In this document: one piece after another, positions 1 to 21,281 of the stretch
Numbering within the stretch: the stretch's first letter is position 1
How the letters are laid out: the number at the start of each line of letters is the position of its first letter
Virus record (IMG/VR): IMGVR_UViG_2671180673_000012
Reading direction: 5' to 3' (one strand)
From: a virus
Taxonomy: Duplodnaviria > Heunggongvirae > Uroviricota > Caudoviricetes
Length of the DNA: 21,281 nt
Notes under the pieces: generated by a model
Databases searched by the model: none
Told to the model about the DNA's origin: nothing
Seen by the model: only the letters and a program-made list of their open reading frames with translations
Position numbers and translations under genes: made by a program

Positions 1-1131
1 TCAAATGACCAGTTTTTTCCATTCCTTACCGCGTGCGTCGTTGTAAATATCGGTCATTTTTTGATTCGAATGGCCCAGCAAAATTTTGGTATCAACCCCC
101 TGCTCTCTGAACAATCGCTCTGATAAAGATCTCTGCTCATGGAAAGAGGGTGGGGTGCCATTAGCACGCCAGTTGTAATCCACAGAATCCCGGGCTTTTT
201 TAAATGCAACGGTTAATGTTGCTGGCTTAACCATCCCGCCGCGCTTAGCTGTCCCTTTCGCGTGATGGTGGTGCAATAGCCACGGACTAAGAACGCAATC
301 GCGGCAGGATGACACTACATCATCCAGGGTGAGATTTAATTTATCGCAACGCAGAGCCAGAGGGATGGCAATCCGGGTTCCTGTTTTTTGCTGTTCGACA
401 TGAAGATAACCATCCCGGATATCCGAAAATTGCATTTTGCAAATATCTGAAAGGCGCTGGCCTGTCATCAGTGCCAGCAGCATACCGCGCTGTAAAAAGT
501 AACCATCCTTTTCCGCTGCGTTATAAATCATCATCCACTCATCAAAAGTCAGTCGCTGTCTTGATATCCGCACCTGCGGTTTTTTTGCCGATTCTGCAGG
601 GTTAAAGCCTGGCGGGACATCGCCCGTTTGCTGAGCTTCCCGGAAAACATCGATCAGTACTTTCCTGAAAATTTGTCCCATTCTGTTATGTCCTCTGGCC
701 TTGTACTCTTCCAGTACTGATACCACATCTTTTACGGTTATGGCATCTAACGGTCTGGTGCCAAAACGTTCATCAAATACCCTGAGAGGGGCCGCTTTCT
801 GTTTCAGCGTGTTGAGTTTGATCTCGCCGTTTTCATATCTTTCCTGTTGAATTTTTCTGTAATTATTCAGAAAAATGGTAACGGTTGATGAACCGCCGGT
901 ATCACTAATAATTTTCTCCTGCAGACTGAGCATTTGTTCCATTTGCTGCCGGGCAAGACGGCTGTTCGCTTCTGCTGCAATAGTTTCTGCCAGTTTCTGG
1001 TCAATACTGCCGAGACCGTGATTTTTGCCTGTTATGGGATGCCTGTAACGCCAGTAAACTTTGTTATTTCTTTTGTCAAAATACGGAGATAATCCCGGAA
1101 CATCGGTTTTATATTTTCGCGGGCGCGCCAT
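1..1131 (-). CDS. int: Tyrosine-type site-specific integrase (phage integrase)
   Basis: 376-aa ORF; C-terminal region has R...HxxR...Y-type catalytic residues (HEQRSLSERL ... LLGHSNQKMTDIY); start overlaps the upstream small basic gene as in int-xis pairs. Confidence 0.9.
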   Translation of the reverse strand: MARPRKYKTDVPGLSPYFDKRNNKVYWRYRHPITGKNHGLGSIDQKLAETIAAEANSRLARQQMEQMLSLQEKIISDTGGSSTVTIFLNNYRKIQQERYENGEIKLNTLKQKAAPLRVFDERFGTRPLDAITVKDVVSVLEEYKARGHNRMGQIFRKVLIDVFREAQQTGDVPPGFNPAESAKKPQVRISRQRLTFDEWMMIYNAAEKDGYFLQRGMLLALMTGQRLSDICKMQFSDIRDGYLHVEQQKTGTRIAIPLALRCDKLNLTLDDVVSSCRDCVLSPWLLHHHHAKGTAKRGGMVKPATLTVAFKKARDSVDYNWRANGTPPSFHEQRSLSERLFREQGVDTKILLGHSNQKMTDIYNDARGKEWKKLVI

Positions 1132-1421: not shown

Positions 1422-3896
1422 TTAAAAATCAGCCTGACTCGGGATCAGTTTTTGCCAGATAACTGAAACGTATTTTGCCTGGTAACGGGCGTCATCAAGT
1501 GCATTATGGCGCTCACCTTCGAATGGAATAGCCGTTCTGGNATCGAAGTCTATGGCTTTCCCCAGCTCAACGATTGTGCGTACATCGCGATCGTTGTAGT
1601 AACGCCACGGGCAGGGGATCCCCTGCCGTTCGTATGAACGGCGCAAAATCGTGTTGTCGAAGTTGGCTCCATTTCCCCAAACCTGAACAAAAAATTCACC
1701 GGAGTTTTCGTCGATAAATTCNCGCAATTGTAACAGTGCATCATCTAACGGGATTTCATCGGTCATAATGGCAGATTGCGCTTCGCGTGATTGCTTAAGC
1801 CACCATTTAATGGTGTCCCGATCAATGACTCCGCCAGCAGTTTCCAGATCGATAGTCTTACTAAATTCCGGTCCCATATCTCCGGTTTGCGGATCGAAAA
1901 ATATTGCACCTATTGAGATGATCGGGGCATCAGGATTTTTTCCCATGGTTTCAAGGTCGATCATTAGATGGTCACACGTCCTGCTGGTGGATGTGATTTC
2001 NTGATGACCGTTCACCTTAATTGNGTGATCTGCCGTCTCGCCAGTTTCATTATCGCTATNGTGATGCTGATTGCCGNCAGTGTTCTCCTTGTGTGGATGT
2101 TCAGCGCCTTCCATTTCCTCCGGATCATCTTCCTGAACTTCAACCTGATACTCTTCATCGAATGTTTCNTGGTATGTTGCGTCGCCCATCACCGCGCCAC
2201 AATCAGGGCAGTTGCCGCCGCCGGTCTGACCGCAGGCGGTGCAGACTTTTTCCACTTCCTGTTGCGCCACTGGTTCAGGCTGTTTCGTTTCTGGCTCGTT
2301 TTGTAACGCATTTGGGCTGTTTTGTTCCGCTTTCTGGCCGTTCTGTTCCGTTTCTTGCTGGTTCTGATTCACTGAATCGCGGGTTTCAATCCCCTTCACC
2401 CATTTCGGATCATTCGGGTCGCTAATCCCTGCAACAAATTCACCACGTGATACAGCAAGCAACTTATTGGCGTCAGGCTGGCTGATATTGGCTGCCTGCA
2501 TAATTTTGTTTACTTCGTCAGCGGTAACTTTTACCGGCTCTGGTTGTGCGATCGTGTCAGATGCACCAGTATTTTGTTGTGAACCTGAGTACGTGCCGTT
2601 TTTACGTGCGAAGTATTCCTCTTTTGTGATTTCCGTAGCTCCCAGGGCCAGTGCTTTTTCCAGACCAGAAAGTTTGTTTGCGCGACCGTATTTTTCGCCG
2701 TCCTTATCGGTGAAAAGGAAGTAGAACGGTCCCTCACGCTCTACAGATGGTTCGTCTTCCACTTCGCATTCGTTTTTTTCGTTGTCCGGCATTGCCGTTT
2801 CCACTGCATCAGTTTCTGGTACTGGTGACGGGAGAGTACCAGCTGTGCCCTGATTTGTTCCTTCGTCATCTTCAAACACGCCCTTGGTAGTCAGGTATTC
2901 AGTGATGTATTTGTTCAGTGCTACGGGATCTTTGTGAATGTCGATCGGACGCTCACGGACAAGGCCAAAAATAGTCTGACGGTCGTAGCGAACGGCATCG
3001 GGTTGTTTGCGCATTGATGCGGAAATGCGCTTCCAGTCTTCGCGATCTTTGTCGATAACTTCATTTTTTGCCCAGCGATGGATGCTGCCGTCAATGTTTC
3101 CGGTATCAATATCGCCAGGCCAGAGAGCGTAGGCCAGTTCTTCATCCAGCGTTTTCCATGTCTGCTTGTATTCGCGACAAATGGCGGCAGTGACTGGGTT
3201 GATTTTTCCTGCTGAGTTTTCAGTGTTCTGTTGATTGACTCTGGCGCTGGCGAGATCAACAACAGACGTGTATTTTCCAGTCTCTTTGCGCTCTGCGTCC
3301 TGCCGTTTTTTCCAGTTACGTAATTCAGCCTGAATTTCGGGCCATTTGGCACCCGGATTACATTTGTGTTTAACCCATCCGATAGCGAACAGTTTGCGTT
3401 CCGGATACATAGCGTTAATTTCAGGCGTTTTCATCAGTGCTTCAACGATATGCCCGTCAAAGGTAGCAACGTCTTCCTGCAGTAATTCCTGCGCGTCAAT
3501 CGCCATATCAACGGTGATGTTTTCACATGTACCGAACTTAACCAGGACCGCGTTCTGTACTTCAAGGGACAGCTTGTCAAAATTGACGTTCATCGGATCG
3601 GATTCTGGTTCGACCGGAATAAAGGAAGCGGATTCCTCATCCCAGCGGTTTTCCTGCATATATTCAGCATCCCAGGAATCGAGGGCAGGGCGGGGTATAC
3701 CGGGTTTATCCTCGCAGACAAGAAATTTATAAGCGCAGTCCTGAGCAGCCGGATAATGTTCCAGGAATTGCCAGTGAAATTTTGCGCGGGCGCGACGTTC
3801 ATCACCGGCTTCAATGGCAGTGGCTACAGCGACGGCACCTTCTTCCTTTATTGCCTGTTCGTCCGGAATGGCGGCGCAAATAAAGACTTTACTCAT
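1422..3896 (-). CDS. Large early protein with C-terminal DnaQ-like (DEDDh) 3'-5' exonuclease domain and central Cys4 zinc ribbon
   Basis: 824-aa ORF; exonuclease motifs near the C-terminus (MIDLETMG ... WGNGANFD ... HNALDDA); [16 protein letters not shown] zinc ribbon; GAGG RBS 9 nt upstream of ATG at 3896; several n-derived X residues. Confidence 0.8.
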
Positions 3897-13633: not shown

Positions 13634-14284
13634 ATGAATGAAAATCAGTTAGCTCCTTGTTGGGAATTTCAACCTTATCTTGCTGAAAACTATGTTCGCC
13701 ACTTGTTGGCGGAGATCGCTAACGTACTTGAGCAGCTGTACTATCATAAGCACGCATTAGACAGCAACTGGTCTGAAGGTGTAAGGGCTTATGATTGGGT
13801 CAGAAATCATCTTATTCAAAATGAAGATGCAATTCCTGGCCTTGAGATGATTTCCAAGGGGTTGGACTATGTAGTTGCTTTAAATAAAGTTCCGCTACAA
13901 TTTACCAAAGATTGCATTAATAACCCCAAAAAGAAACATCGTCTGCGTCGAAATAAAGTAGAGTATGAGCAGCTCTCATTGTTTGGTGATGTTGAGGCTG
14001 AGCAAGATATTACATGGCGAGTCATAGCTGAGCCTTTTTTATCCGAAGAGGGCGATGGTGAATTAGAGTCCACACTGCCTCGTTGGGAGGTAGCTCTTGT
14101 TGGATTTAATACTTATGGTGCTCAGATTAGTATAGTTTCTCATCAATCTACAGCATCGATGCCGCTTATGCCTCTTGATTATAACACACTCCCTGACGAA
14201 GCGGAGATTAATAAGGTGCCTCTTCGCCGGCGTACGAAGGATAAAGATTTGGATGTGAGCAGTGATGGAACATCAGGTGAATAA
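13634..14284 (+). CDS. Hypothetical protein (216 aa), first gene of the insert; candidate effector/toxin partner
   Basis: Continuous ORF; about 33% GC over the first 60 nt against about 50% in flanking phage genes; no domain recognised by eye; 3' end overlaps the downstream gene by 20 nt. Confidence 0.6.
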   Translation: MNENQLAPCWEFQPYLAENYVRHLLAEIANVLEQLYYHKHALDSNWSEGVRAYDWVRNHLIQNEDAIPGLEMISKGLDYVVALNKVPLQFTKDCINNPKKKHRLRRNKVEYEQLSLFGDVEAEQDITWRVIAEPFLSEEGDGELESTLPRWEVALVGFNTYGAQISIVSHQSTASMPLMPLDYNTLPDEAEINKVPLRRRTKDKDLDVSSDGTSGE

Positions 14285-15368
14285 CTTCACTGAGTATCGG
14301 GGTGATAAGCTCAAACTAGCGAGAATGGCTGTTGGGCTTTCTTGTGAAGAGTTAGCCGAAAAAATTGGCAAGACAAAGCAATTCGTTAGCAAACTGGAGA
14401 AGGGGTGCAGGCCATCGGAGCAATGTCTTGAGTTAATATCTTCAGCGCTTATGATTAAGTCCAGTTTTCTTTTTACTGAACGAAAATACGCTCTGGAAAG
14501 TGATGTCTGCCATTTTCGGAGTAAGAAGTCCAGGACTCAAACGCTGACTAATAGTGTATTGGCCAGGGCTGAGATTCTTAATATTATAATTTCTGCTGTT
14601 GAAGGTGAAATCGAATTTCCTGACGTTAACATACCGGAGCACCCAGGGGCTGAATTACTTACTCCGAATGATATTGAGCGAGTGGCAGAAGATTGTCGCC
14701 GTGCCTGGAATTTAGGTCTTGGCCCTATATCATCAATGGTTAAATTGGCGGAGAGTTTAGGGGTAATCGTTGCGCATGTTACGGGAGTCGATGATCGTGT
14801 TGATGCTTTTACTGTTCACAATAACAGGCCTGTTATCATCAGGAACAATGTTAAAAAAAGCATATGTAGATTTCGCTCTGATTTAGGTCATGAATTAGGG
14901 CATTTAGTAATGCATGAGGGCATAACGACAGGTGATAAACTTACGGAATCACAAGCCGATCACTTTTCGAGCGCCTTATTAGTTCCCAGGTTATCTTTCA
15001 TTAAAGAATTTCCACGAATACGAGGTAAGCAATTCGACTGGAATGCTCTGGTTGAATTTAAACTTAGATGGAAAATCAGCCTTAAAATGTGTATTTATCG
15101 AGCCAGCGCATTAGGCTTATTGACCCAGGAACAGGCAAGAACTGGCTATATGCATCTTAATTCCAGAGGGTATACGAGAGTTGAACCTGGTGATGAACTT
15201 TTGCGCCCTGAAGAACCCGGCATGCTGGCCGAGGCGATTGAAATGCTGGATGATGCAACCTGGCTAAGAATTCTTATGAAAACTGGCTTGAGCCAAGATT
15301 TAATTCGTGAGTTGTTCTCCATCAACAGACCTATTACAAATCCAAGAAATATTTTCCAGATTGTTTGA
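14265..15368 (+). CDS. Fused XRE-family HTH + ImmA/IrrE-family (COG2856, HEXXH) zinc metallopeptidase
   Basis: N-terminal HTH (LSCEELAEKIGKTKQFVSKLEKG); HEXXH motif DLGHELGHLVMHEG in the central region; ATG at 14265 (ORF-track entry starts at GTG 14262). Confidence 0.8.
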   Translation: MEHQVNNFTEYRGDKLKLARMAVGLSCEELAEKIGKTKQFVSKLEKGCRPSEQCLELISSALMIKSSFLFTERKYALESDVCHFRSKKSRTQTLTNSVLARAEILNIIISAVEGEIEFPDVNIPEHPGAELLTPNDIERVAEDCRRAWNLGLGPISSMVKLAESLGVIVAHVTGVDDRVDAFTVHNNRPVIIRNNVKKSICRFRSDLGHELGHLVMHEGITTGDKLTESQADHFSSALLVPRLSFIKEFPRIRGKQFDWNALVEFKLRWKISLKMCIYRASALGLLTQEQARTGYMHLNSRGYTRVEPGDELLRPEEPGMLAEAIEMLDDATWLRILMKTGLSQDLIRELFSINRPITNPRNIFQIV

Positions 15369-17091: not shown

Positions 17092-17466
17092 ATGCTCATA
17101 GATTTGGTTTTACCTTACCCGCCGACGGTGAACACTTACTGGCGACGCCGTGGCAGCACATATTTTATCTCGGAGGAGGGAAAGCGTTATCGCCGGGCTG
17201 TGGCGCTTATTGTTCGCCAGCAGCGGCTGAAATTAAGCCTGTCCGGAAGGCTGGCGATAAAGGTGATTGCAGAGCCACCGGATAAGCGTCGTCGCGACCT
17301 GGACAATATCCTGAAAGCACCGCTGGATGCGCTGACGCATGCGGGAGTGTTAATGGACGATGAGCAGTTTGATGAAATCAATATCGTTCGTGGTCAGCCA
17401 GTATCTGGTGGACGTATGGGGGTGAAGATTTACCCCATAATGCATGAAGAGCAGGTCAAAAAATGA
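17092..17466 (+). CDS. rusA: RusA-family Holliday junction resolvase
   Basis: 124 aa; RusA-like motifs (PPTVNTYWRRRG ... KRRRDLDNILKAPLDALTHAGVLMDDEQ); GAGGTG RBS 5 nt upstream. Confidence 0.85.
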   Translation: MLIDLVLPYPPTVNTYWRRRGSTYFISEEGKRYRRAVALIVRQQRLKLSLSGRLAIKVIAEPPDKRRRDLDNILKAPLDALTHAGVLMDDEQFDEINIVRGQPVSGGRMGVKIYPIMHEEQVKK

Positions 17467-18284
17467 AACTGGAAGATTTACCGAAATACTACTCCCCAAA
17501 ATCCCCTGGCCTGACCGATGCATCGGCCTCAACGTCAAAAGATGCGCTGAGTATCACTGATGTGATGGCCGCGCAGGGCATGACACAGAATCGGGCTGAG
17601 ATGGGGTTTTCTGCGTTCCTGGGGAAAATGGGCATCAGTATGAATGACAGGGCGCGGGCAACAGAATTACTGGCAGATTATGCACTCAGTCGGTGCGATC
17701 GTGTGGCGGCGTTGAGAAAACTTCCGGCAGAAATAAAACCGGTAGTGATGCGCATTATGGCTTCGTATGCGTTTGAAGATTATGCCCGTAGCGCGGCGAG
17801 CAAAAAACAGTGCCCCTGCTGTCACGGAAAAAAATTTATTGAAAGCGAGGTTTTTACAAACAAGATCCAGTATCCGGATGGTAAGCCACCAGTGTGGGCA
17901 AAGTGCACAAAAGGCGTGTATCCGTCTTACTGGGAAGAATGGAAAAAAGTCAGGGAGGTGGTAAAAGTTGCCTGTCCGGAGTGTGGCGGAAAGGGTGAGG
18001 TTTCCACCGCCTGTAAGGATTGCCGTGGGCGTGGTGTCGCCATTCATCGTGAAGAGTCGGTAAAACGTGGTATGCCTGTTATCAGAGANTGCCAGCGTTG
18101 TGGTGGTCGTGGCTGTGAAAGNCTNCCATCAACGGAGGCATTTAATGCCATATGCAAAGTGACGAGTGCTATCACGCTTGATACGTGGAAAAAATCAGTG
18201 AAACGCTTTTACGATACGTTGGTGGTTCGGTTTGACATTGAAGAGGCATGGGCGGAGCGGCAGTTAAAGAGGGTAACGCGATAG
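17463..18284 (+). CDS. Late-gene antitermination protein Q
   Basis: 273 aa starting MKLEDLPKYYSPKSP; repeated CxxCxGxG zinc-finger motifs; ATGA coupling to rusA; immediately upstream of the late promoter and terminator. Confidence 0.85.
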   Translation: MKLEDLPKYYSPKSPGLTDASASTSKDALSITDVMAAQGMTQNRAEMGFSAFLGKMGISMNDRARATELLADYALSRCDRVAALRKLPAEIKPVVMRIMASYAFEDYARSAASKKQCPCCHGKKFIESEVFTNKIQYPDGKPPVWAKCTKGVYPSYWEEWKKVREVVKVACPECGGKGEVSTACKDCRGRGVAIHREESVKRGMPVIRXCQRCGGRGCEXXPSTEAFNAICKVTSAITLDTWKKSVKRFYDTLVVRFDIEEAWAERQLKRVTR

Positions 18285-18289
18285 TGTTG

Positions 18290-18317
18290 TTGATTTTTCC
18301 CGAATCTGTGGTAAATT
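18290..18317 (+). promoter_or_regulatory. Candidate late promoter (pR'-like) with extended -10
   Basis: TTGATT, 16-nt spacer, TGgTAAATT, directly downstream of Q. Confidence 0.5.
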
Positions 18318-18365
18318 TGCTCTAACGATGGGCGTTTTATGCCTGACGTTAGAAGATTTTTTACA

Positions 18366-18389
18366 CCCCGCCGCCTGGCGGGTTTTTTA
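18366..18389 (+). terminator. Rho-independent terminator (tR'-like), presumed target of Q antitermination
   Basis: CCCGCC-GCCT-GGCGGG hairpin followed by TTTTTT, about 50 nt downstream of the promoter -10. Confidence 0.6.
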
Positions 18390-18510: not shown

Positions 18511-18708
18511 ATGCTAAAACAGCAGGATATGACAGAAACCGCCAGAGTNGTGTTTAATGAATTAAGCGTTACCGAACCGGCGACAGTCGGGGAGATNGCN
18601 CAGAATACTTACCTTTCACGCGAACGCTGCCAGTTAATACTGACCCAGCTGGTTATGGCGGGTCTGGCAGACTATCAGTTCGGTTGTTACAGACGCCTTC
18701 CGCAGTGA
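18511..18708 (+). CDS. Small hypothetical protein (65 aa)
   Basis: ATG at 18511 with AAGGGA upstream; the ORF-track entry from 18424 is an N-terminal extension; n-derived X residues present. Confidence 0.45.
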   Translation: MLKQQDMTETARXVFNELSVTEPATVGEXXQNTYLSRERCQLILTQLVMAGLADYQFGCYRRLPQ

Positions 18709-18718
18709 AGGCTTTTTT
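18695..18718 (+). terminator. Hairpin plus T-tract overlapping the small-ORF stop
   Basis: GCCTTC-CGCAGT-GAAGGC followed by TTTTTT. Confidence 0.5.
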
Positions 18719-18858
18719 ATTTGTGGTAAATGGGCGGCTGGTGGGTGTTAGGGGCACCCACCAGCCATCTGCTCATGCGTTGGGTTCACAAGCAAACCTC
18801 AGGCCCACTGCTTTGCGCAAAAGCAGAATGAGCCTATCAGAGACAGGCTTAATGATCC

Positions 18859-19908
18859 ATGCTTAATACTGTAAAAATATCCAGTTGTGAGTTAATCAAC
18901 GCCGACTGCCTGGAATTTATCCGGTCGTTACCCGAAAATTCTGTTGACCTGATAGTCACGGACCCGCCGTACTTTAAAGTGAAGCCTGAGGGCTGGGATA
19001 ACCAGTGGAAGGGCGACGATGATTACCTGAAGTGGCTGGACCAGTGTCTGGCGCAGTTCTGGCGGGTGCTGAAACCTGCCGGAAGTCTTTACCTGTTCTG
19101 TGGTCATCGCCTGGCATCTGATATCGAAATCATGATGCGTGAACGCTTCAGTGTGCTGAACCATATTATCTGGGCGAAGCCGTCCGGACGCTGGAACGGA
19201 TGCAACAAGGAAAGCCTGCGGGCGTATTTCCCCGCCACAGAGCGCATTCTGTTCGCGGAACATTATCAGGGGCCGTATCGTCCGAAAGATGCCGGGTATG
19301 CGGCGAAGGGCAGTGCACTGAAACAGCATGTGATGGCCCCGCTGATTTCTTACTTTCGTGATGCGCGCGCGGCCCTGGGGATAACGGCAAAACAGATTGC
19401 AGATGCCACAGGAAAGAAAAACATGGTGTCGCACTGGTTCAGTGCCAGTCAGTGGCAGCTACCGAACGAAAGCGATTATCTGAAATTACAGTCGCTGTTT
19501 GCCCGGGTGGCAGAAGAGAAACATCAGCGCGGTGAACTGGAAAAGCCCCACCACCAGCTGGTGGATACGTATACGTCACTGAACCGGCAGTATGTGGAGC
19601 TGCAGAGTGAATATAAGCATCTGCGGCGGTATTTTGGTGTGACGGCGCAGGTGCCGTACACGGATGTGTGGACACATAAACCGGTGCAGTTCTATCCCGG
19701 GAAACATCCGTGCGAAAAACCGGCAGAAATGCTGCAGCAGATAATCAGCGCAAGCAGTCGTCCGGGTGACCTGGTTGCAGATTTTTTTATGGGCTCAGGT
19801 TCAACGGTAAAAGCNGCACTGGCGCTCGGGCGTCGTGCGATTGGCGTTGAACTGGAGACCGGACGTTTTGAGCAGACAGTCAGGGAAGTTCAGGATTTAA
19901 TCGTTTGA
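18859..19908 (+). CDS. DNA N6-adenine/N4-cytosine-family methyltransferase (DPPY motif), orphan phage methyltransferase
   Basis: 349 aa; motif IV DPPY near the N-terminus (LIVTDPPYF) and AdoMet-binding FFMGSGST near the C-terminus (beta-class order); no adjacent restriction endonuclease gene. Confidence 0.85.
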   Translation: MLNTVKISSCELINADCLEFIRSLPENSVDLIVTDPPYFKVKPEGWDNQWKGDDDYLKWLDQCLAQFWRVLKPAGSLYLFCGHRLASDIEIMMRERFSVLNHIIWAKPSGRWNGCNKESLRAYFPATERILFAEHYQGPYRPKDAGYAAKGSALKQHVMAPLISYFRDARAALGITAKQIADATGKKNMVSHWFSASQWQLPNESDYLKLQSLFARVAEEKHQRGELEKPHHQLVDTYTSLNRQYVELQSEYKHLRRYFGVTAQVPYTDVWTHKPVQFYPGKHPCEKPAEMLQQIISASSRPGDLVADFFMGSGSTVKXALALGRRAIGVELETGRFEQTVREVQDLIV

Positions 19909-19957: not shown

Positions 19958-20033
19958 GGCCCTTTAGCTCAGTGGTGAGAGCGAGCGACTCATAATCGCC
20001 AGGTCGCTGGTTCAAATCCAGCAAGGGCCACCA
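19958..20033 (+). tRNA. ileZ: tRNA with CAU anticodon, Ile2 (lysidine)-type by resemblance to ileX/ileY
   Basis: Manual cloverleaf: acceptor GGCCCTT/AAGGGCC, D-arm GCTC..GAGC, anticodon loop CTCATAA, T-loop TTCAAAT, encoded CCA. Confidence 0.85.
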
Positions 20034-20040
20034 TCACATA

Positions 20041-20117
20041 CCGCCATTAGCTCATCAGGAAAGAGCGCCAGCCTTCGAAGCTGGTTGCGCGGAGTTCGGG
20101 TCCCCGAAGGCGGTCCA
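20041..20117 (+). tRNA. argN: tRNA-Arg (anticodon UCG) with atypical T-loop and one acceptor-stem mismatch
   Basis: Manual fold: D-arm GCTC..GAGC, anticodon stem CCAGC/GCTGG, loop CTTCGAA, T-loop TTCGGGT, encoded CCA. Confidence 0.7.
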
Positions 20118-20130
20118 TTATCTGTATCCT

Positions 20131-20207
20131 GCGTTGTTAGCTCAGCCGGACAGAGCAATTGCCTTCTAAGCAATCGGTCACTGGTTCGAATCCAGTACAA
20201 CGCGCCA
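20131..20207 (+). tRNA. argO: tRNA-Arg (anticodon UCU)
   Basis: Manual fold: acceptor GCGTTGT/ACAACGC, anticodon stem ATTGC/GCAAT, loop CTTCTAA, T-loop TTCGAAT, encoded CCA. Confidence 0.85.
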
Positions 20208-20465: not shown

Positions 20466-20656
20466 CTGTGCCGGATACATCACAGTTTCTGGAACCTTAG
20501 GTACTACAGTATCAGTCAGGGTGCTATATTTTCAGATGTGATGAAAGCCTGTCAGCAGGCAGGGCGTATCGGAAATGACCCAGTAGAGAAAACGTTGACT
20601 CAGATACCGGTGCTGAGTTACCGGGAAACCGGCATCACATGACCGCTATCCTTCCA

Positions 20657-20683
20657 GGCCCATCCGCTCCGGTGGGCCTTTTT
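20657..20683 (+). terminator. Hairpin terminator-like element just upstream of the IS boundary
   Basis: GGCCCA ... TGGGCC stem followed by TTTTT. Confidence 0.4.
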
Positions 20684-20772
20684 ACTGCAGAAAACAGGTT
20701 CCCCGTTAAATGCTATGTTGAACCGCCCCGGGAATCCTGGAGACTAAACTTCCTGAGAAAGAGGTAAACAGG

Positions 20773-21099
20773 ATGACTAAAAATACTCGTTTTTCCCCCG
20801 AAGTCCGTCAACGGGCAGTCCGTATGGTTCTGGAAAGTCAGAGCGAATATGACTCACAATGGGCGACAATTTGTTCCATTGCTCCAAAGATTGGCTGTAC
20901 GCCGGAGACTCTGCGTGTCTGGGTTCGCCAGCATGAGCGGGATACCGGGGGCGGTGATGGAGGGCTCACCACCGCTGAACGTCAGCGTCTGAAAGAGCTG
21001 GAACGTGAAAATCGTGAACTGCGCCGCAGTAACGATATCCTTCGCCAGGCTTCCGCTTATTTTGCGAAGGCGGAGTTCGACCGCCTCTGGAAAAAATGA
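20773..21099 (+). CDS. IS629-like transposase OrfA (HTH, leucine-zipper region)
   Basis: 108 aa: [19 protein letters not shown] ... [31 protein letters not shown], an IS3-family OrfA pattern. Confidence 0.85.
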
Positions 21100-21281
21100 T
21101 GCCACTGCTGGATAAGCTGCGTGAGCAGTACGGGGTCGGACCGCTATGCAGCGAACTGCATATTGCCCCGTCAACGTATTACCACTGTCAGCAACAGCGA
21201 CATCATCCGGATAAACGCAGTGCCCGTGCGCAGCGCGATGACTGGCTGAAGAAAGAGATACAGCGCGTATACGATGAAAAT
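21096..21281 (+). CDS. IS629-like transposase OrfB, N-terminal fragment (partial, runs off window)
   Basis: -1 frame relative to OrfA, starting in the AAAAAATGATG overlap; reads [30 protein letters not shown]...; no stop before the window end. Confidence 0.8.

Follow-up and report, generated by a model that had tools for sequence, protein, structure and literature searches.

The locus analysed here raises the question of what a DNA methyltransferase is doing in the late region of a prophage that carries no restriction enzyme to go with it, and how such an enzyme would be held in check in the lysogen. The window, that is, the whole stretch of 21,281 nucleotides that was analysed (IMG/VR record IMGVR_UViG_2671180673_000012), corresponds to the early and middle part of an Escherichia coli lambdoid prophage. 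An earlier sequence-only reading had described the gene as an orphan DPPY-motif methyltransferase that would be expressed under late-promoter control, consistent with either anti-restriction or epigenetic regulation; its structural claims held, but the M.EcoGI/M.EcoGII family and the lack of sequence specificity that goes with it went unrecognised.

The methyltransferase gene is located at 18859..19908 on the plus strand, starts with ATG and encodes an intact protein of 349 amino acids, which is assigned here to the orphan, beta-class N6-adenine methyltransferases of the M.EcoGI/M.EcoGII type. The Pfam search showed a match to the N6_N4_Mtase family (PF01555) over residues 29-340, with an E-value of 1.4e-43 and 149.9 bits against a cut-off of 26.7. 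The DPPY motif occupies residues 35-38 and the FxGxG motif, here FMGSG, residues 310-314, and this is the beta-class order that had been read from the sequence. The sole non-ACGT base of the gene, also remarked on before, lies at 19815 in the third position of codon 319 (GCN), and since GCN encodes alanine whichever base is present, the frame and the protein are intact; the window as a whole holds 17 ambiguous bases, grouped at 1-3 kb and 16-20 kb. A sequence search of the PDB revealed that solved beta-class enzymes match the catalytic core with E-values of 3e-25 to 1e-14, the matches spanning residues 8-141 and 270-343 only, and the same search returned no solved relative of the central 130-165 residues or so, which comprise the target recognition domain (TRD) together with a linker. 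The best Foldseek matches were all beta-class amino-methyltransferases (CcrM, M.BceJIV, M.RsrI, M.MboIIA, and M1.HpyAVI; E-values of 2e-15 to 1e-12). M.BceJIV (8urk/9c3u), CcrM (6pbd), M.RsrI (1eg2), and M.MboIIA (1g60) share the catalytic Rossmann core with the window enzyme and, unlike the M.EcoGI/M.EcoGII type, are all sequence-specific. The AlphaFold2 model of the whole protein was merely moderate (mean pLDDT 68) and was therefore left aside for judging the TRD. It places helices at residues 146-173, 177-184, 190-194, 204-224, and 231-254, with pLDDT values there of only 47-82, and this helical central region agrees, at modest confidence, with the published recognition domain of M.EcoGII, a four-helix TRD containing a helix-turn-helix (about residues 160-237) that a charged helical linker connects with the core (PMC11551740).

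Comparison with characterised enzymes revealed that the window methyltransferase is, as judged by identity, a further copy of the known M.EcoGI/M.EcoGII-type prophage enzyme, so that the gene is not new. Enzymes of the M.EcoGII type are well studied; they are marketed as a reagent and serve in chromatin footprinting. The window protein and M.EcoGII were identical at 330 of 350 aligned positions (approximately 95%), a value of 94-95% being an approximation or a slight underestimate because reading errors remain in the reference, which was a machine-read PDF table with a few obvious errors of this kind (PMC11551740, Table S1). An exact look-up of a rebuilt, “corrected” M.EcoGII sequence among public protein sequences gave no match. 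The two proteins are both prophage-borne, lack an endonuclease partner, share the order DPPY, TRD, and FxGxG, and are collinear over their full length of 349 residues save for single-residue gaps near positions 276 and 325, which are apparently reading errors. They differ by about 13-17 substitutions, concentrated in the charged linker (residues 236-263), with only three in residues 160-237. The enzyme of phage 1720a-02, named a close relative of M.EcoGII by Murray et al. (2018; PMC5778455), was 95% identical to the window protein. The methyltransferase of a prophage in strain EC958 was 99% identical, with only the changes L2A and D346G apart from the masked Ala319; this protein (RefSeq EC958_RS07400) we take to be M.EcoMV (EC958_1545) of prophage Phi4, from its prophage position and not from an old locus tag. 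M.EcoMV is 99% identical to M.EcoGI, was predicted to be non-specific and was not transcribed in LB according to RT-PCR (Forde et al., 2015; PMC4659465). The identity between the window protein and M.EcoGI is thus only transitive and depends on EC958_RS07400 being M.EcoMV.

The activity, the silence and the toxicity ascribed to the family come from the literature on these near-identical enzymes. M.EcoGII, a beta-class protein of 349 amino acids, is carried on a cryptic prophage of E. coli O104:H4 C227-11; adenines are methylated whatever the flanking sequence, with 86% of dA modified in vivo when the gene is on a plasmid and as much as 99% in vitro, and the enzyme also accepts single-stranded DNA, RNA/DNA hybrids, and RNA (Murray et al., 2018; PMC5778455). 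It is silent in the native lysogen, its constitutive expression is harmful and its expression from a plasmid slows growth, while M.EcoGI from the same strain shares 333 of 349 residues with it and is likewise non-specific (PMC5778455). Published annotations already predict homologues with an identity of about 93% to be “nonspecific”, and from its identity of 95-99% the window enzyme is predicted to methylate adenine irrespective of sequence context, as the family does. By comparison, it is very improbable that the gene encodes a sequence-specific orphan enzyme which, like Dam or CcrM, marks one particular motif and exerts epigenetic control over genes of the phage or the host. Orphans of the same Pfam family, CcrM and YhdJ, are indeed sequence-specific, and the NCBIfam models of both gave partial matches to the window protein; these matches were confined to two core segments and fell far under the curated cut-offs, with 112.6 bits against 292 for the YhdJ equivalog (NF008572) and 71.8 bits against 830 for the CcrM equivalog (NF050803), and both assignments were rejected. 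The window protein is moreover 95-99% identical to enzymes demonstrated to have no sequence specificity, and its close relatives showed neither a methylation signature nor transcription in lysogens, which makes them ill-suited to laying down a standing epigenetic mark. Of the two roles offered by the sequence-only reading, anti-restriction is therefore favoured and sequence-specific epigenetic regulation is unlikely, because M.EcoGI and M.EcoGII methylate adenine in any context. The M.EcoGIX/M.BceJIII group was also considered and set aside on genomic context and published description: those enzymes are plasmid-borne, lie in the conjugative leading region and are specific for single strands (PMC7736820), whereas the window gene belongs to a chromosomal lambdoid prophage.

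The genomic surroundings of the gene were then determined from Pfam and PADLOC scans. The integrase gene (1-1131, minus strand) is followed by genes for an 824-amino acid protein with a C-terminal 3'-5' exonuclease domain, a Rha/Ash protein, the repressor, and a YdaT-like protein, and next by those for DnaT-like and P-like replication proteins, DUF1627, DUF977, the RosmerTA defence pair, DUF968/HNH, RusA, and the antiterminator Q. The latter, a protein of 273 amino acids encoded at 17463..18284 on the plus strand, matched PF03589 (“Antitermination protein Q”) with an E-value of 8.7e-48, in agreement with the RefSeq annotation of a locus 99.6% identical. Three tRNA genes follow the methyltransferase at 19958..20207 (plus strand), with anticodons CAU, UCG (Arg), and UCU (Arg), as found by ARAGORN, the Rfam tRNA model, and RefSeq, where the first is annotated as tRNA-Ile (ileZ); an STnc100 sRNA comes after them according to Rfam. 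No restriction endonuclease was detected among the ORFs of at least 100 amino acids in the window by the Pfam and PADLOC scans, as the earlier reading had it. An endonuclease gene beside the methyltransferase had been named as a finding that would speak against this reading, and none lay there in the window or in related loci: in the window the neighbours are a 65-amino acid ORF, Q, and the tRNA genes, and not the cognate endonuclease that would mark a Type II restriction-modification system, while in E. coli, Salmonella, Enterobacter, and 80 IMG/VR loci the gene is flanked by the small winged-helix ORF or Q on the 5' side and by tRNA or lysis genes on the 3' side. The EC958 prophage has the same layout (DUF968, RusA, Q, small ORF, methyltransferase, tRNAs), and in Stx2a_1447 the order is Q, small ORF, methylase, ileZ, argN, argO, stx2A, and stx2B, so that the window represents an stx-less form of that module.

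The position of the gene behind Q bears directly on when it would be expressed. A pR'-like late promoter was identified at 18290..18329 (plus strand), directly after the Q stop codon, with a -35-like TTGATT (18290-18295), a -10 element TAAATT (18312-18317), and, six bases past the latter, an AACGAT pause element (18324-18329). Alignment with lambda positions 44500-44760 showed that the block GGTAAATTTG......AACGATGGG is kept with identical spacing; in lambda, the -10 and AACGAT elements correspond to the late promoter and to the sigma-dependent pause at which Q engages (pR'/qut). The consensus promoter scan missed this site because merely 8 of 12 hexamer positions match. Two intrinsic terminators on the plus strand were found between this site and the methyltransferase: a tR'-like terminator at 18367..18388 (CCCGCC-GCCT-GGCGGG and a T run), detected by the terminator scan, and a second one at 18695..18720 (GCCTTC-CGCAGT-GAAGGC and a T run) that overlaps the stop codon of the small ORF. 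The methyltransferase start thus lies about 535 nt from the inferred pR' transcription start, behind both terminators. The Salmonella (L005) and Enterobacter (L006) loci carry terminators in the corresponding position behind Q, and nearly all related loci have, ahead of the leader of the methyltransferase gene, a hairpin that runs into a pyrimidine-rich tract, with stems that vary by lineage (GCCUCC/GGGGGC, CUGCCA/UGGCAG, CCUCGC/GCGGGG, and GCCUGU/ACGGGC). The order of Q, promoter-like site, terminator, optional small gene, hairpin, and methyltransferase is also found behind unrelated Q proteins in Salmonella and Enterobacter, and the same order from Q to the methyltransferase was seen in loci of many other species.

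In Stx phages, pR' is constitutive, its transcripts stop at tR' in the lysogen and are extended by read-through once Q is made (PMC7547250). The location of the gene downstream of Q and of the pR'-like site, as had been proposed, together with the silence in lysogens reported for M.EcoGI, M.EcoGII, and M.EcoMV, supports late, Q-dependent expression of the methyltransferase. Its place behind pR', tR', and the second terminator would also offer a simple mechanism for the silence of M.EcoGI and M.EcoGII in the lysogen, in the slot which in Stx2 phages carries stx2 a few hundred bases further on. Published descriptions of M.EcoGII make no mention of a position behind Q/pR', of tRNAs or of a leader (“antiterm” and “tRNA” each occur zero times in PMC5778455), and an explanation of lysogen silence by Q/pR' was not found stated for M.EcoGI/M.EcoGII in the literature examined.

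Taken with the identity, motifs, fold class, orphan status, and position observed in this analysis, the reading that we hold with good confidence is that of an M.EcoGI/M.EcoGII-family N6-adenine methyltransferase that is expressed late in dependence on Q and protects phage DNA by anti-restriction methylation. In the lysogen, pR' transcripts would stop at the terminators ahead of the gene. Upon induction, Q would render RNA polymerase terminator-resistant and the methyltransferase would be made late; it would mark a large share of the adenines in the replicated phage DNA before packaging, and in the next host the progeny DNA would then be shielded from many restriction systems that are sensitive to m6A. 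The Q dependence, the timing, and the benefit are what we infer from gene position and from the relatives, and the role is most likely anti-restriction through bulk methylation of adenines; an anti-restriction role was also hypothesised by Murray et al. (PMC5778455) and in a recent review. The literature searched yielded no study reporting, for a phage with this gene, methylated virion DNA or an anti-restriction phenotype, nor one of induction-dependent expression of the M.EcoGI/M.EcoGII family. Two other systems offer points of comparison. The M.HaeV/Hia5 group of Mu-like prophages likewise consists of prophage adenine methyltransferases of little or no specificity with a presumed anti-restriction role, but its members are alpha-class enzymes with FxGxG at the N-terminal and DPPY at the C-terminal side (Drozdz et al., 2012; PMC3299994); the motif order is opposite, and this architecture therefore evolved independently of the beta-class window enzyme. 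Mom of phage Mu, as described in a review, is a functional analogue, a toxic enzyme with a broad spectrum of adenine modification that is made late, stays silent in the lysogen and is controlled at several layers, but it is an unrelated protein and adds an acetamido modification instead of a methyl group.

An alternative in which the intact enzyme is silent baggage, sitting in a cryptic or disabled prophage, at no time expressed during productive lytic growth and persisting only by linkage and recent descent, is a distinctly less probable account that nonetheless deserves weight. An IS3-family element begins at about 20719, in the late operon some 800 bp downstream of the methyltransferase, and the window ends soon after, so that this particular prophage may be defective; M.EcoGII itself was described on a cryptic prophage (PMC5778455), and many E. 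coli prophages with the methyltransferase module are degraded, with frameshifted and partial genes seen. Nevertheless, the IS element would not block expression of the methyltransferase, because it sits downstream, and the window has the ORF with its motifs in intact form, and likewise the leader, the promoter upstream, and Q. The exact window protein occurs on at least 1000 public contigs, and the family is under purifying selection, with a nucleotide identity of 73% overall against 48% at third codon positions.

The tRNA genes bear on another alternative, according to which the main target is RNA or the host chromosome and late m6A on transcripts, tRNAs or host DNA would serve to reprogramme or shut down the host or to interfere with a competitor phage; we consider this improbable. 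It draws on the action of M.EcoGII on single-stranded DNA, RNA/DNA hybrids, and RNA in vitro, on the slower growth caused by its plasmid-borne expression (PMC5778455), and on the three tRNA genes directly 3' of the methyltransferase in Escherichia-type loci, which lie within 400 nt downstream of it in 67 of the 71 testable IMG/VR loci. The methylation of RNA by M.EcoGII is, however, about 90-fold slower than that of DNA (initial velocity 0.12 against 11.12; PMC11551740, Table S3), tRNAs follow the gene only in Escherichia-type loci and are missing from the module elsewhere, and nothing in the data points to RNA as a target in vivo.

Between Q and the methyltransferase, the 65-amino acid ORF at 18511..18708 (plus strand) is a real gene encoding a winged-helix protein (phrog_331; PHROG E-value 9e-35), with homologues in 334 clusters and an identity of 73-83% in the Enterobacter and Salmonella loci examined. 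AlphaFold2 predicted a minimal winged helix of three helices and a beta-hairpin (pLDDT 91), and Foldseek returned only generic winged-helix matches, all with E-values above 1e-3. In 72 of the 73 testable IMG/VR loci, the ORF is found 154-161 nt ahead of the methyltransferase; among the 44 species-representative loci in which the methyltransferase gene is full-length, roughly one third lack it, and it is therefore a frequent companion of the methyltransferase and not an obligatory partner.

The methyltransferase gene is directly preceded by a leader of about 135 nt (18720..18858, plus strand), which conservation, a covariance model, and folding mark as a candidate cis-regulatory RNA. Across 28 loci from many Enterobacterales genera (378 pairs), the mean pairwise identity of the leader was 85%, against 73% for the coding sequence and 48% for its third codon positions, and the leader was the more conserved of the two in 98% of the pairs. 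A peptide-coding function is excluded because one-nucleotide indels separate the lineages, and no match to an Rfam family was found on the plus strand. The covariance model R1, built from 29 sequences, found one copy per locus on the plus strand, abutting the ATG, in the window and in 47 further loci, many of them outside the seed alignment; among the loci that include the gene start, the leader was missing from only four, which are distant or atypical, and it is present also where the small ORF is lacking. A 20-mer of the first leader hairpin was followed by a methyltransferase start 100-160 nt further on in 106 of the 111 testable IMG/VR instances, and in four exceptions the breakpoint lies inside the leader hairpin, the cassette having been swapped by recombination for a different cargo gene of 237 amino acids.

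Folding analyses gave a minimum free energy of -63.4 kcal/mol for the window leader (z = -4.97 compared to shuffled controls) and a z-score of -4.16 for a Salmonella copy. The predicted fold comprises a long 5' hairpin and a branched 3' domain; most minimum-energy folds pair the invariant UGAUC(U/C) that lies immediately 5' of the AUG, and no conserved Shine-Dalgarno sequence was found before the start codon. The sequence hardly varies: in the covariation test only two pairs showed double changes, a number matched by 52 of 500 shuffles, and the score was not above that of the shuffles. The inverted repeat AGCCTATCAGAGACAGGCT (18831-18849) was considered as an operator for the winged-helix protein and rejected, its 3' arm not being conserved outside E. 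coli. We regard the leader as a functional non-coding element, and from its strong folding and its position we infer that it probably adds a second, post-transcriptional brake, acting at the RNA level, on a toxic methyltransferase. By masking the region before the AUG, the leader would resemble the stem that inhibits translation of mom. In phage Mu, Com is the translational activator of mom. More tentatively, and with the odds somewhat against it, the terminator hairpin, the near-invariant leader gating translation, and the coding sequence may form an undescribed regulatory cassette, in which the winged-helix protein might act on the leader in a Com-like manner. The additional layer of control that the conserved leader suggests matters for the way in which phages make use of a toxic anti-restriction enzyme, and for anyone expressing M.EcoGII-type enzymes from the native sequence.

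The distribution of the gene revealed that the M.EcoGI/M.EcoGII type is ordinary for E. coli prophages. It was present in 1917 of 5426 complete E. coli genomes, at up to six places per genome, with 2794 of the 2805 matching places on chromosomes, and many Enterobacterales genera have prophages that carry relatives with an identity of 71-81%. As a further copy of a well-studied enzyme, the methyltransferase gene itself changes nothing, and only the leader and the surrounding cassette structure carry some novelty. The region from Q onward matched 307 records of the phage collection, mostly Stx2-converting phages, in which the gene is annotated as “DNA methylase”. Over these 3.9 kb, the first 3.3 kb were 99.6% identical to the chromosome of an E. 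coli strain from pig, with the same gene order in RefSeq.

The methyltransferase, a 349-aa orphan adenine enzyme of the M.EcoGI/M.EcoGII type, is preceded by a non-coding leader of approximately 135 nt (18720-18858, + strand), which lies directly 5' of its ATG and always accompanies this gene family. Sequence comparison revealed that identity was higher in the leader (85%) than in the methyltransferase coding sequence (73%) or at its third positions (48%). The leader is also predicted to fold strongly, with a z-score of about -5. A search of the leader against Rfam returned no match, and it is a candidate cis-regulatory RNA. In addition, four viral contigs from IMG/VR, recognized by a 20-mer probe from the first leader hairpin (L155, L191, L215, and L234), carry in place of the methyltransferase cassette an AT-rich segment with a gene for a 237-aa protein. 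The breakpoint of the replacement is located inside this first hairpin, and the four contigs are an example of cargo exchange at the methyltransferase slot.

Upstream of the leader, a conserved gene (18511-18708, + strand) encodes a 65-aa winged-helix protein of phrog_331, labeled either "TrmB family" or "DprA-like winged helix" depending on the source. In 72 of the 73 close loci, this gene precedes the methyltransferase by 154-161 nt, and it is absent from about one third of the species representatives. Further upstream, a constitutive short RNA of approximately 65 nt would be made in the lysogen from the inferred start of the late promoter pR' to the first terminator (18324-18388, + strand). 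The predicted transcript would take the position of lambda 6S RNA, and likewise that of the StxS sRNA of Stx phages, which is 258 nt long (PMC7547250).

Downstream of the methyltransferase, ARAGORN and RefSeq place a tRNA cluster at 19958-20207 (+ strand), which was observed in this 3' position only in loci of the Escherichia type. The first tRNA is called tRNA-Met(CAU) by ARAGORN, whereas the RefSeq annotation gives tRNA-Ile (ileZ), presumably lysidine-modified; the remaining two are arginine tRNAs for the codons CGA/CGG and AGA/AGG. Just 3' of the tRNA genes, Rfam detected the STnc100 sRNA (RF02076; 20283-20473, + strand), whose 136 bits exceed the gathering score of 47. A second copy, weak and partial, comes next (20512-20685, + strand), with 30 bits, below threshold. 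In Stx2 phages, the stretch corresponding to this position is occupied by stx2AB. The late operon is then interrupted by an IS3-family insertion sequence, whose left end (about 20719-21281, + strand) includes orfA with an HTH_Tnp_1 domain (20773-21099, + strand). Its end sequence, TGAACCGCCCC..., resembles that of IS629/IS1203. In related prophages without the element, a large DUF6645 (or carbohydrate-esterase) gene comes next, followed by holin and lysozyme genes.

The prophage also has cargo in its nin-like region, where two overlapping open reading frames (13634-15368, + strand) resemble the pair of genes of the RosmerTA anti-phage defense system, with matches to RmrT (E 4.6e-25) and to RmrA (E 6.2e-105), the latter combining an HTH with an M78 peptidase. 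At 1422-3896 (- strand), the slot held in lambdoid phages by the recombination exonuclease contains a gene for an 824-aa protein with a match to an Rv2179c-like 3'-5' exoribonuclease domain (E 5e-67) over its C-terminal 170 residues; several of the ambiguous n bases of the window fall within this gene.
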